NCBI GenBank assembly: GCA_964016885.1
Contig: OZ024763.1
Location: 25,668,001-25,732,000 of the forward strand
From: Eledone cirrhosa
Taxonomy: Eukaryota
Length of the DNA: 64,000 nucleotides
Direction: 5' to 3'
This document shows positions 18,299 through 63,359 of this stretch, one piece after another. The position numbers were made by a program, and so were the translations under genes. Under the pieces are notes generated by a model. The model ran no database searches, was not told the DNA's origin, and worked only from the letters and a program-made list of their open reading frames with translations. Within the stretch, counting starts at the first letter, position 1. The number at the start of each line of letters is the position of its first letter.

Positions 18299-18345
18299 TG
18301 CTTACAGCTGTTTCCTCCAAACCGAGGTTTGGATTCTTCGGAGCA
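18299..18345 (-). ncRNA. minimal type I hammerhead ribozyme motif (U4C core variant)
   Basis: TGCT-CCGAAGA-A-TCCAAAC-CTCG-GTTTGGA-G-GAAA-CAGCTG-TA-AGCA: stem I, 7-bp stem II, palindromic stem III ACAGCUGU. Confidence 0.65.
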
Positions 18346-18769
18346 ATTTATTAATGCATGGACAGTTATATGACCTCCTTTTCAGCCGAGAGACATACCA
18401 ATACATATTCAAACATTGATACATATTCAAACATTGTGGGTCAACATTCATTACAGAATTTAGAGTGGCAGTACACACTTCGAGATTACATTTATATTAA
18501 TAGGTACAATCAAAAATCAAAGATATAGGTTAAAGTACAACATGAAGATAAGTGGTTATATAGTGCAAATGTTATATGTGTGGCACGCATGTGCGTCTTG
18601 TTTATATAGTGTGGCAGAGAGATATGTGTGGTAGAGGCACTTAGGTAGGTAAATAAGAGTGTTAGGTTGGTAGATCTGGTGGCAAAGTCTTTATATGATT
18701 GATATAGTCTGTGTGTGGAGAAATATTATAAGCATTAAAGATAGTGCAAGCATTAAAAGTGTTATAAGT

Positions 18770-18945
18770 ATTGGAGATGCACAGCGCAGGGATGTCAAGT
18801 AATTCATGTACTTCGGCATTTTCATGGTCAAGGGAGTGTATATTTTGATTATATGCCTTTCACGTAATCCACGACAATCCAGTTAGAGATCGTAGTCTGG
18901 TGTTCTTTAGTTCGATACAGGAGGTTGTTACGTTTCGAGAAACGC
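18770..18945 (-). pseudogene. possible degenerate Penelope GIY-YIG endonuclease C-terminal fragment
   Basis: Frameshifted peptides [13 protein letters not shown] and HSLDHENAEV resemble RxxEH / HxxDxENxxI motifs; lies upstream of the hammerhead at 18299 on the same strand. Confidence 0.35.
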
Positions 18946-18949
18946 CATT

Positions 18950-21080
18950 ATATTTCATATATACATATATATATATTCATATATACATATAAATATATAT
19001 ATATATATACATATATATATATTCATATATACATATAAATATATATATATATATACATATATATATATATATTCATATATATATGAATATATATATATAT
19101 ATTCATATATATATATATATTCATATATATATATATATTCATATATATATATATTCATATATATATATATTCATATATATATATATTCATATATATATAT
19201 ATATATATACATATATATATATATACATATATATATATATACATATATATATATATATATATACATATATATATATATATACATATATATATATATACAT
19301 ATATATATATATACATATATATATACATACATATATATATATACATACATATATATATATATATATATATACATATATATACATATATATATATATACAT
19401 ACATATATATATATATACATAAATATATATACATATATATATACATATATATATATATACATATATATATATACATATATATATAAAATCTGTATGTATA
19501 TATGTATATATATACAGATTTTTACATTGTATTTCTTTGTTGATTTTATACATGTGTATATACATGTATATATATATATATATATATATATGTATATATT
19601 CATGCATGTACATGCATAAAATCCTCCCAATATAAACCTGCAGTTTAAAAAAATGACATTTCTGTATGTTTGTGTGTATATATATATATATATATATATG
19701 AGTGTGTGTGTACATAAGCATACACATATTACACATAAACAGGCGTACATATACATACATCATCATCATCATCATCGTCATCGTTTAGCGTCCATATTCC
19801 ACGCTTGCATGGATATATATATATATATATATATATATATATATATATACATACATACAAATATTCATACATATGCCTATTTACAGAATATATACATCAC
19901 AAATGTATATATACATACATATATATGCATTACGATTCGAACACATGTATGTTTATATTAGTGTTCATCTCTCTTGTTTATTCAATTATATATACATACA
20001 TATATACACTACACACATGTACACATACACAGACAATGCATACATGAATACAAACCACAGGCACATACAAACACATACATGTACAACACACATACATCTA
20101 ATACACACACACACACACACACACATACATACATAAACAATACATACATACATTCATATACACATACAATACACACACATAGAGAGGGGGGGAGAGAGAG
20201 AGAGAGAGAGAGAGAGAAACAAAACATACATACATACAATACATATAGACATATAATACATTTACATACCCACATACAAGCAATATACACATACATATAT
20301 ACACATTTACAATACACATACTATATACATATATACACACACACACATACTACATACATAGACACACATACACACTACATACATACAGACACACACACAT
20401 ACTACTACATACATAGACACACAAACACACATACATATATATAATACACCCATAAAAACACACACACACACCACACATACTACATACACACACACTACAT
20501 ACATATATACAATACATACACACATACACACACACCACACACATACTACATACATATATACAATGCATACACACACACACCACACATATACTACATACAC
20601 ACACAACACACATACTACATACATATATACAATACATACACACACATACACACACCACACACATATATACAATACAAACACACATACACACACACACACA
20701 CCACACACACACATACTACATACATATATACAATACATACACACATACACACACACCACCCACACACACACCACACATACTACATACATATATACAATAC
20801 ATACACACAACACACACACCACCCACACACACACCACACATACTACATACATATATACAATACATACACACAACACACACACACCACACACAAACATACA
20901 CACCACACCATACCCACACACCACACACACACACCACACACACACACAGACCACACCCACACACACCACACACACCACCCACACACACACACACACACAA
21001 ACATACCCACACACACCACACACACACCACACACACACACCACACACACCACACACACCACACACACACACCACACACTA
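18950..21080. repeat. compound (TA)n/(TACA)n/(CA)n microsatellite field
   Basis: Direct inspection. Confidence 0.9.
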
Positions 21081-21479
21081 CGAGTGTCAGTTCAATGAAG
21101 ACATCTCTAGATTTTTCACCACATTACCCAAACATCTTCAATTTTGTTTACTAAAACATAATCCATATATGGAAGGGTGTGTGGGGTGAGAAAATGGGGA
21201 GGTGCGGATTGGTGGGGGGACAGTGGGTTGCGGATGGGGGAGGGAGGGGGAGCAGAGAGGAGACGGGGGGGGTGGATGGGGGGGGGGAGCAGAGGGGAGA
21301 CATGGGGGGGGGGGGGTGATTACACTTTTTTTTATTAAATATATACTAAAATTTGTTCATGTGTATATGTGTGTGTGTGTGTTTGTGTGTGAGTACATGC
21401 GTTTGTGTGTGTGTGTGCATTTTTTGTGTGAGTACATGCAGTTATGTGTGTGTGTGTGTGGTGTGCATGTTTTTATGTG

Positions 21480-22331
21480 TGTGTGTATCCGTGTAGTTGT
21501 TTGTGTGTGAGTATATGTAGTTGTGTGCGTGCATGTGTTTGTTTGTGTGTGTGTGTGCCTGTGTAGTTGTTTGTGTGTGAGTATATGTAGTTGTGTGTGT
21601 GCATGTGTTTGTTTGTGTGTGTGTGTGTCCGTGTAGTTGTTTGTTTGTGTGTGTGTGTGTCCGTGTAGTTGTTTGTGTGTGAGTATATGTAGTTGTGTGT
21701 GTGCATGTTTTTGTGTGTGTATCCGTGTAGTTGTTTGTGTGTGAGTATATGTAGTTGTGTGTGTGCATGTGTTTGTTTGTGTGTGTGTCCGTGTAGTTGT
21801 TTGTGTGTGAGTATATGTAGTTGTGTGTGTGCATGTGTTTGTTTGTGTGTGTGTGTGTCCGTGTAGTTGTTTGAGTGTGAGTATATGTAGTTGTGTGTGT
21901 GCATGTGTTTGTTTGTGTGTGTGTGTGTGTCCGTGTAGTTGTTTGTGTGAGTATATGTAGTTGTGTGTGTGCCTGTGTTTGTTTGTGTGTGTGTGTGTGT
22001 GTGTGTGTGTCCGTGTAGTTGTTTGTGTGTGAGTATATGTAGTTGTGTGTGTGCATGTGTTTGTTTGTGTGTGTGTGTGTCCGTGTAGTTGTTTGAGTGT
22101 GAGTATATGTAGTTGTGTGTGTGCATGTGTGTGTGTGTGTGTGTGTAGTTGTTTGTGTGTGAGTATATGTAGTTGTGTGTGTGCATGTGTGTGTTTGTGT
22201 GTGTGTGTGTCCGTGTAGTTGTTTGTGTGTGAGTATATGTAGTTGTGTGTGTGCATGTGTTTGTTTGTGTGTGTGTGTGTCCGTGTAGTTGTTTGAGTGT
22301 GAGTATATGTAGTTGTGTGTGCATGTGTGTG
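21480..22331. repeat. ~60-70-bp GT-rich minisatellite abutting an assembly gap
   Basis: Repeated CCGTGTAGTTGTTTGTGTGTGAGTATATGTAGTTG units. Confidence 0.9.
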
Positions 22332-22531
22332 NNNNNNNNNNNNNNNNNNNNNNNNNNNNNNNNNNNNNNNNNNNNNNNNNNNNNNNNNNNNNNNNNNNNN
22401 NNNNNNNNNNNNNNNNNNNNNNNNNNNNNNNNNNNNNNNNNNNNNNNNNNNNNNNNNNNNNNNNNNNNNNNNNNNNNNNNNNNNNNNNNNNNNNNNNNNN
22501 NNNNNNNNNNNNNNNNNNNNNNNNNNNNNNN
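22332..22531. other. assembly gap (200 N)
   Basis: Run of N. Confidence 1.
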
Positions 22532-22561
22532 TATATGCACATGTAAGCATATATAGATATA

Positions 22562-62081: not shown

Positions 62082-62180
62082 GTAGTAGTAGTTCCACAAC
62101 AGTTAGTTCACCATACCGAGAACAAATGTTTCTCGTTATTACTCGGTATGGTGAACTAACTGTTGTGGAACTACTACTAC
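62082..62180. repeat. perfect 39-bp-arm hairpin with 21-nt loop
   Basis: 62082-62120 is the exact reverse complement of 62142-62180. Confidence 0.95.
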
Positions 62181-62290
62181 CAAACTCGTCCCATGGACTA
62201 AGTGCTCTACTACTACGGATATAACATTCCAGTGTTCTACTATTATATATATATTAAAATATGTTATCAAACACTTATTCACTTCATAAT

Positions 62291-62334
62291 TCGATTTACA
62301 ATTGTTTCATCCGCGCGGGACTTATCAAAACCGA
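62291..62334 (-). ncRNA. type I hammerhead motif with U3-A8 compensatory core
   Basis: TCGGTT-TTGATAA-GTCC-CGCGC-GGAT-GAAA-CAATTG-TA-AATCGA. Confidence 0.7.
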
Positions 62335-62452
62335 TTATTTTATAAATAATTACCTCTGTGTATGTATGTCTGTCTGTCTGTCTGTGTGTATGTGTGTTTG
62401 TGTGTCTGTGTCTCTGTTTGTGTGTGTGTGAAAACGAATTTCTTTACATATA

Positions 62453-62680
62453 TATTGCAAGAGATGTCAACATGAATGGACCTGTTATTTTTATCTAAAG
62501 ACATTTTTTCCAATTCCAACCCGCCTGTCGCCTCAACCTATCTTATTTCTCATTCTTTCTTCTGATGGAGGACTAGCATCCGAAACGTTAAGACCCTCTT
62601 CCTGCTATATCAAGTGTTAACCTAATATATTCCTTCCATATACTGTACAGATTGTGTTGTTATTTCTGTTTACCTTTTAC
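62453..62680 (+). mobile_element. short hammerhead-bearing element (A9G ribozyme variant at 62558-62593)
   Basis: Colinear with 25645; TCTT-CTGATGG-AGGACTAGCATCC-GAAACGTT-AAGA; ends TTTACCTTTTAC-(AC)n. Confidence 0.75.
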
Positions 62681-62881
62681 ACACACACACACACATATAT
62701 ATATATATATATAATATAGAAATGGCTTCTACAGGATTAGAACTGTTTCATTCACACAAAGTAAAATATTTCGTTTTAATCATTTTCTAAACCAGAAAAA
62801 AGAGAGAAATAATAAAAAGGGAAAAAAAAATATTTTTCTTCCTAATAATCGTCTTTTTCTCTGTTTTCATATATATATATG

Positions 62882-63210
62882 TGGAGGCGCATGGCTTAGT
62901 GGTTAGAGCATTGGCCTTGCAATCGAAAGGTTGTGAGTTCAATTCTCAGACCGGGTGATGAGTTGTTTCCTTGAGCAAGACACTTTATTTCACGTTGCTC
63001 CAGTTTACTCAGCTGTAGAAATGAGATATGGACTGAGATCCCTATCATTCCACTGCAAAGTGGTCGTGGAGGTGCCACGGCAAAAAAGCACCCGGCACTC
63101 ACTGTAAATGAGGTTGGGCATCCAGCTGTAGAAATCAAGCCAGAATCAGTTCCCGTCCCACCCTTGCAAGCAGGGAAAAGCAGACATAAAATGAAATGAT
63201 GAAATGATGA
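62882..63210 (+). mobile_element. SINE family B
   Basis: Head to tail, with a small deletion. Confidence 0.85.
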
Positions 63211-63303
63211 TATATATATATATATATATATATATATATATATATATATAGATATGTAGTGACGAAACATAAGTCAATTGCATGATCTCATAATCCTTTA
63301 TTT

Positions 63304-63359
63304 ACTGCTATATATATTTCGATGATGGCCATTGAATGGCTATGACCTCATCAGGCAGT
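63304..63359 (-). ncRNA. canonical-core type I hammerhead motif
   Basis: ACTGC-CTGATGA-GGTCATAGCCAT-TCA-ATGGCCATCATC-GAAA-TATATA-TA-GCAGT, followed immediately by AATAAA. Confidence 0.8.

Follow-up and report, generated by a model that had tools for sequence, protein, structure and literature searches.

A 64,000-nucleotide stretch of the genome of the octopus Eledone cirrhosa (assembly GCA_964016885.1, contig OZ024763.1, positions 25,668,001 to 25,732,000 of the forward strand; here called the window) consists mostly of microsatellites, satellites, and short repeats, and a first-pass annotation had pointed to 16 hammerhead ribozyme motifs in it. An exon of a host gene elsewhere in the assembly shares 92 to 94% identity with a protein of Octopus bimaculoides and 86% with Argonauta, which points to an octopod. 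We conclude that these motifs are very probably minimal type I hammerheads in the terminal repeats of Hydra- and Neptune-type Penelope-like elements (PLEs) and that the islands in which they lie are tails of such elements, probably left when reverse transcription stopped early at nicked (TA)n tracts. Dense hammerheads on Penelope tails are already known (Cervera 2014, PMC4209133; Craig 2021, PMC8557442). What appears to go beyond those accounts is the size of the Hydra-clade expansion and a family, termed H, in which a change from U to C at core position 4 (U4C) is fixed.

A strict descriptor (YUGANGA, GAAA, and UH, with stems I and II each of at least 3 bp), set before variants were inspected, matched the window six times, compared with a mean of 0.01 to 0.09 matches (maximum, 1) in three sets of 100 dinucleotide shuffles. 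A relaxed descriptor gave 9 matches versus 0.35 in shuffles, and a widened one, built after inspection to admit an extra base past A9 as well as U3-A8 and U4C cores, gave 11 matches at a score of at least 8 versus 0.05 (maximum, 1) in 60 block shuffles. The passing sites have the type I stem order, I to III, with a canonical CUGANGA/GAAA/NUH core at nine of them and a variant core at two more. In sequence terms, the window motifs are confirmed as minimal type I hammerhead folds. Ten of the 13 sites that the first-pass annotation had listed as its main ones pass (core position C3 at 18341−, 25712+, 42547−, 42617+, 44433+, 45950+, 50974−, 51085+, 62328−, and 63354−); the three that fail are nevertheless copies of hammerhead families, namely, 45141− (imperfect stems; score of 5 with the relaxed descriptor), 56601− (mutated stems), and 62562+ (A9G). 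Of the three sites it had called decayed, 45679− passes; 45281+ and 56830+ are decayed. Its reading of CUGANGA at every listed core does not hold at 18341−, where the core is CCGAAGA, or at 62328−, where it is TTGATAA.

The 16 sites sort into 10 repeat families (A, B, C, C2, D, E, F, G, H, and M), six of which are pseudo-long terminal repeats (pLTRs):

18092..18949, minus strand: family H, 5′-truncated tail (3′ untranslated region [UTR] and pLTR) of a Hydra-clade PLE; U4C core, C3 at 18341, predicted cut after 18303; stem II with A·G at its base, stem III palindromic; 98.8% identity to the full-length copy L247
25646..25830, plus strand: family A, pLTR of a Neptune-type PLE; canonical core, C3 at 25712, H17 at 25739
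42442..42616, minus strand: family B, copy in inverted orientation that carries the short end; canonical core, C3 at 42547, H17 at 42495
42614..42805, plus strand: family B, copy in direct orientation that carries the long tail, a Hydra-clade pLTR; canonical core, C3 at 42617; the inversion junction leaves only 3 bp of stem I
44342..44625, plus strand: family C, pLTR and 86-bp tail of a young Hydra-clade PLE; core CUGAGGA, C3 at 44433, H17 at 44482; copies 99% identical
44890..45164, minus strand: family F, repeat without an open reading frame (ORF) link; canonical core, C3 at 45141, imperfect stems
45260..45340, plus strand: decayed A-like copy; C3 at 45281
45545..45712, minus strand: family M, pLTR-like repeat without an ORF link; C3 at 45679; U·U at the base of stem II, a long stem III, and a short fold-back arm
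45782..46136, plus strand: family E, pLTR and tail of a Hydra-clade PLE; canonical core, C3 at 45950, H17 at 45984
50782..51018, minus strand: family C2, copy with a long tail, of the C pLTR lineage; canonical core, C3 at 50974
51021..51190, plus strand: family C2, partner in inverted orientation that carries the short end; canonical core, C3 at 51085; stem II damaged
56474..56712, minus strand: family A copy; core intact, C3 at 56601; stems mutated
56805..56882, plus strand: decayed fragment of family M; site at about 56830
62244..62354, minus strand: family G, repeat without an ORF link; compensatory U3-A8 core, C3 position at 62328, H17 at 62297
62452..62681, plus strand: family A copy; A9G core change, C3 at 62562
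63257..63426, minus strand: family D, pLTR of a Hydra-clade PLE; canonical core, C3 at 63354, H17 at 63309

The window holds only 5′-truncated tails that end in (TA)n, three of which are inverted pairs or fold-backs. All 16 sites have a dinucleotide tract 41 to 262 nt 3′ of C3, and in C and C2 the first tract counted is the ribozyme's own TA-rich stem III and not the end of the element. The stems were also said to differ in sequence and still pair, and stem II of the C lineage bears this out. BLAST and flank anchors yielded 48 motifs of this lineage, of which 43 were compared after exclusion of four near-duplicates and of the damaged copy at 51085 in the window. In this set, seven of the nine pairs of stem II change on both sides. 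Such double-sided change occupies 67 cells compared with 21.4 in shuffles, a value that none of 500 shuffles reached, and slid controls gave 1 to 15. Further stem changes include stem III variants in H and stem I variants in M.

Evidence for the parent elements comes from ORFs that lie next to the repeats. Six of the 10 families are shown by motifs and layout, rather than by phylogeny of the reverse transcriptase (RT), to be pLTRs of PLEs of about 4 kb, with B, C, D, E, and H belonging to the Hydra clade and A being of the Neptune type. A single ORF lies between two pLTRs of the same family in C (loci L081 and L082, both frameshifted), E (L144 and L145), H (L247 to L249), B (L323 to L325), and D (L326), with a pLTR spacing of 3.7 to 4.6 kb. 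The H and C proteins contain RWR, DKT, YRDD, CxCX5C, CxxC, and CxH, which together equal the Hydra diagnosis of PMC8557442. RWR and DKT are found in the E protein too, with degenerate C-terminal endonuclease motifs in the E copy L144; the B and D ORFs align to the C, E, and H proteins at 39 to 53%, and the CxCX5C linker is visible in a B copy. In its RT part, H is 43% identical to C and 62% identical to E. A Hydra ORF beside D in L113 and another beside M in L273 were rejected as links because each is a separate insertion across a TA tract, and the contact between M and an ORF in L327 is ambiguous. Within the window itself, tblastn found no PLE ORF. None of the six proteins submitted to Pfam, five Hydra ORF pieces among them, had a match; many homologues carry PF26215.

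Family A has four members in the window (25712, 45281, 56601, and 62562) and 2,513 first-look candidates, with a single 3′ end and ragged 5′ ends. In L166, L174, and L176, it is contiguous with an RT, a CX4CxxC linker, and a CCHH-type GIY-YIG domain, read in three frames, as in Neptune-type elements; these parents are seen as broken 3′ halves only. Family C has copies that are 99% identical, many with an inverted partner, and its pLTRs align with those of C2 as one lineage. The earlier description of several unrelated families therefore stands as to their number and is too strong as to their independence, since C and C2 form one lineage and five families share Hydra-clade ORFs. Likewise, the linked Penelope RT and endonuclease ORFs that it expected are present for A, B, C, D, E, and H; for C2, F, G, and M, none was found in the loci examined. 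At least 10 additional hammerhead families, some with a long stem II or an odd-length stem III, lie outside the window (in L251 to L310 and other flanks). Past the short pLTR end, the tails of B, C, C2, and M have in common a hairpin of the form ACTC...GAGT with a variable inner stem (42720-42755, 44535-44565, 50830-50865, and 45580-45612, for B, C, C2, and M, respectively), a candidate promoter or RT-binding signal.

The shape of the islands suggests how they may have formed. Their 3′ ends are fixed at 40 to 210 nt beyond the predicted cut, their 5′ ends are ragged, and inverted partners are present. Two alternative ends occur per family, one on each side of the insertion, at a distance of 86 bp in C and 96 bp in E, and H ends at about 42, 150, and 208 nt. 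By analogy with known PLE biology, transcription would start in the upstream repeat of a partial tandem and run through it, and the endonuclease would nick a (TA)n microsatellite. Target-primed reverse transcription would then begin 40 to 210 nt past the ribozyme and abort early, leaving tails of 150 to 900 bp, while fold-back or template switching at short self-complementary spots would give rise to the inverted pairs. The clustering of inversion junctions at self-complementary spots suggests fold-back priming. At loci L060 to L071 and L177 to L201 of families B and C, the junctions fall repeatedly at one such spot, give or take a few bases, and the direct B copy often begins three bases ahead of the ribozyme core. 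Moreover, integrated copies cross the predicted cut site, and the template is therefore likely to have been uncut or rejoined RNA. To judge from the literature, the ribozymes would be slow and dependent on dimers formed via the palindromic stem III, so that lone copies would mostly be passengers and probably inert.

The scale of this population was estimated from a sample of 60 stretches of 10 kb each, placed at round positions across 19 contigs and amounting to 600 kb, or 0.02%, of the 3.0-Gb assembly. The sample holds 40 matches at a score of at least 8, compared with 2.1 in shuffles, or 67 per Mb (bootstrap, 42 to 95). After subtraction of chance matches, this corresponds to roughly 190,000 motifs in the genome, a total extrapolated from 0.02% of it with a descriptor made for this analysis. 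Pieces of Hydra ORFs occur in 7 of the 60 stretches. The window, with 11 matches in 64 kb (about 170 per Mb), is about 2.5 times as dense as the sample mean and yet is not a special locus. An alternative density of 65 in 370 kb, taken from the flanks of search matches after removal of five duplicates, six large loci, and the loci of the window itself, was discarded in favor of the systematic sample because partner pLTRs bias it. Exact matches across the genome number 14,280 for B, 5,881 for M, 4,154 for H, and 2,750 for D (27,065 in all), and reversed controls gave none for any of the four. The core of the original proposal, i.e., Penelope-type minimal type I hammerheads in many families, inserted at microsatellites and abundant genome-wide, is borne out.

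Family H departs from this picture in its core. With C rather than U at core position 4, it is hammerhead-like in build and a core variant, and the CCGAAGA core occurs in 23 of the first 25 loci. In genome-wide counts of matched 28-mers, C4 occurs in 3,927 copies, the canonical U4 in 31, and the mirror CpG change in 47. Because U4 copies are no commoner than the mirror change, CpG decay explains the canonical H copies; a hidden canonical subfamily was rejected on the same ground, and the 12 U4 copies examined scatter over several subfamilies. Decay of a single copy was also rejected for the cores at 18341 (H) and 62328 (G), most of whose relatives share the variant cores. Family H is young, as evidenced by an unbroken 832-amino-acid ORF in two copies (L247 and L248) and by pLTR pairs that are 98.4 to 100% alike; the window copy is about 99% alike to full-length copies. 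Among representatives of five subfamilies, unforced ribozyme positions agree in 200 of 210 cases, compared with 108 of 200 in the upstream flank and 229 of 300 in the downstream flank, where identities are ungapped and so understated. The differences between representatives sit in stem III, which takes the form of either of two palindromes or of a wobble version, and the remaining catalytic positions G5, G8, G12, A13, and A14 are kept. From these comparisons, selection appears to maintain the H fold even though position 4 is C. Contigs of three sequencing runs cover the H element. One run, from a second study and labeled as another organism, contains 58% of the sampled H words, with most pieces 99% alike, which may reflect a close relative or a labeling matter.

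The other variant core, U3-A8, was found in 11 of 19 relatives of family G, ranked by their likeness to the window copy. This swap is known for Schistosoma PLEs (PMC4209133) and as an active covariation (PMC3088659). In two members of family G (L237 and L246), core position 4 is likewise C, and the family resembles H in stem III and upstream of the ribozyme. U4C may therefore be older than H or have arisen twice.

How far these observations carry depends on what else could produce them. Chance matches in DNA rich in AT and microsatellites would be a simple explanation, and the bare YUGANGA heptamer is in fact without enrichment, with 47 occurrences in the window and 41 to 42 in shuffles. The full motif, however, outnumbers its shuffled controls by a factor of about 60 to 600 in the window and of about 19 in the genome sample, and families B, M, H, and D each have thousands of exact copies. 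The shuffle tests of both window and sample, a comparison that the first-pass annotation had itself proposed and that came out in its favor, rule chance out together with the covariation of stem II, and we give this explanation next to no weight. A Rfam scan of the window contributes little here: the best 150 of 469 rows are all microRNA models on TA/CA repeats, and no hammerhead model is among the matches listed. A different view is that the islands are short, nonautonomous, retrozyme-like elements that move as units via small circular RNAs. Families C2, F, G, and M without a shown ORF link would fit it, as would the recurrent inverted junctions in B and C, and a 2026 preprint derives animal retrozymes from pLTRs (bioRxiv 10.64898/2026.07.22.740005). 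By the definition given there, however, an active retrozyme consists of tandem units that each contain a hammerhead, and no such head-to-tail array includes any of the 16 window sites; moreover, six families run on into the ORFs of parent elements, and the 5′ ends are ragged. For the window as a whole, we regard the retrozyme view as improbable, and the population of short ribozyme-bearing elements that the annotation had proposed gives way, for six of the 10 families, to truncated tails of ORF-bearing ones; C2, F, G, and M are possible short nonautonomous elements. Several points do weigh against the interpretation as PLE tails. In the loci examined, C2, F, G, and M have no direct ORF link. 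The top 25 B loci share almost one inversion junction, so that the inverted unit itself could spread, although the junction varies by 0 to 30 nt and resemblance to it was the criterion by which these loci had been ranked. Two of the five covariation measures (pairs with double change and further pair types) are no higher than in shuffles, the covariation counts are inflated by kinship, and stems I and III are partly fixed by the anchors. Finally, single-strand folds of six motifs gave z values of −2.9 to +0.2 with stem III in none, which is expected of dimeric ribozymes and yet lends no support.

A further question is whether H, or perhaps every Hydra family, still needs to cleave. The U4C core of H is predicted to cut poorly, and its fold could have a noncatalytic function, for example as a feature that the RT recognizes or as a means for two RNAs to pair via the stem III palindrome, with cleavage dispensable. 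Fixation of U4C in a young family with intact ORFs speaks for this, as do the better preservation of the ribozyme than of its flanks and the confinement of changes to a palindromic or wobble stem III; Naiad PLEs, moreover, have spread without canonical hammerheads (PMC8557442). On the other side, the ungapped flank identities understate how well the flanks are conserved, and G5, G8, G12, A13, and A14 are retained, as expected if chemistry matters. C4 also need not abolish function, as a natural viroid hammerhead with U4C has considerably lower activity in vitro and is still infectious (PMC3088659). On balance, we find a noncatalytic role doubtful and somewhat favor H as a weak but real ribozyme over a purely structural one. 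A bolder extension is that the roughly 190,000 hammerheads stem from a previously unreported burst of Hydra-clade elements and that family H, one of the most recently active among them, reached about 4,000 copies with a catalytically impaired core and a selected fold, so that fast self-cleavage would not be the purpose of Penelope hammerheads; we put this forward only tentatively.

The remainder of the window adds other repeats. On the minus strand at 58741-59250, between TA arrays, an ORF fragment contains a CCHC-like zinc knuckle and a PD..(D/E)xK-like motif; it resembles the restriction-like endonuclease of site-specific non-LTR retrotransposons. For this fragment, Pfam returned no match and a Protein Data Bank search nothing meaningful. 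Satellites with periods of 35, 47, and 112 bp occupy 1-4417, 7471-13375, and 53436-54800, the last being derived from a common dispersed repeat. Repeats resembling short interspersed nuclear elements, several of them abundant, occur at 14853-15006 and in some ten further places, in many cases next to a TA tract. Fragments like those of long interspersed nuclear elements, from another family, lie near 16227-16437 and 23906-24145.

The role of the hammerhead in PLEs is an open question according to PMC8557442 and PMC7761336. With young families, intact ORFs, and three core types (canonical, U3-A8, and U4C) in one genome, cleavage rate and spreading success become comparable, and family H, if the account given here is true, is a natural experiment on whether fast self-cleavage matters to Penelope hammerheads. 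The data also suggest that Hydra-clade elements, known from few families, are a substantial and recent part of this octopus genome that Pfam misses.

Among known systems, the Hydra clade is the closest match. As described in PMC8557442, it shares with the elements reported here a single ORF with an RT and a C-terminal endonuclease, the RW[K/R], DKT, CxCX5C, CxxC, and CxH motifs, a pLTR hammerhead, (TA)n targets, inverted 5′-truncated partners, and a one-ended tail. That account describes few families, generally of less than 3 kb and with tails of 30 to 40 bp, whereas E. cirrhosa has at least five families with a pLTR spacing of 3.7 to 4.6 kb, long 3′ UTRs, tails of about 90 bp or more, and thousands of copies. 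The relative from Octopus bimaculoides, Hydra-1_Obim, has a hammerhead and a (TA)n target, no pLTR, and four copies ending at one site (PMC8557442). In a literature search on Penelope hammerheads in octopus or other cephalopods, Craig 2021 (PMC8557442) was the one relevant result, and the available text of bioRxiv 10.64898/2026.07.22.740005 does not mention octopus, cephalopods, or molluscs. Family A, for its part, resembles the Neptune clade: its RT motifs, a linker of the CX2-5CxxC type, and a GIY-YIG domain with CCHH residues precede a pLTR that contains a hammerhead.

The ribozymes themselves resemble the minimal hammerheads (min-HHRs) of metazoan PLEs, which occur as dispersed single motifs and as inverted pairs 100 to 700 bp apart and which do not cleave as monomers and cleave little as dimers (PMC4209133). 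Type I topology, a short palindromic stem III, an extra base past A9, the U3-A8 variant, many families per genome, dispersed singles, and inverted pairs are common to both. Numbers differ: min-HHR counts are about 2,000 plus 1,300 in Schistosoma mansoni, 4,000 in the coelacanth, and 9,000 in Xenopus tropicalis (PMC4209133), compared with the 27,065 exact matches in four families here and the extrapolated total, obtained with a different descriptor. Animal non-LTR retrozymes (bioRxiv 10.64898/2026.07.22.740005 and PMC7761336) likewise have a type I hammerhead within a noncoding, pLTR-related repeat, but they form head-to-tail tandem units, in contrast to the single or inverted truncated tails of ORF-bearing elements seen here. 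As for the U4C core, the available part of PMC4209133 contains no such family, and every core in the hammerhead table of PMC8557442 has U4; in the literature, only PMC3088659 turned up with a U4C hammerhead, and an earlier report in other surveys of core variants is possible. Family H has the same core change as that viroid hammerhead, but here an animal retrotransposon carries it as a fixed feature of about 4,000 genomic copies, within a minimal fold without evident tertiary contacts.

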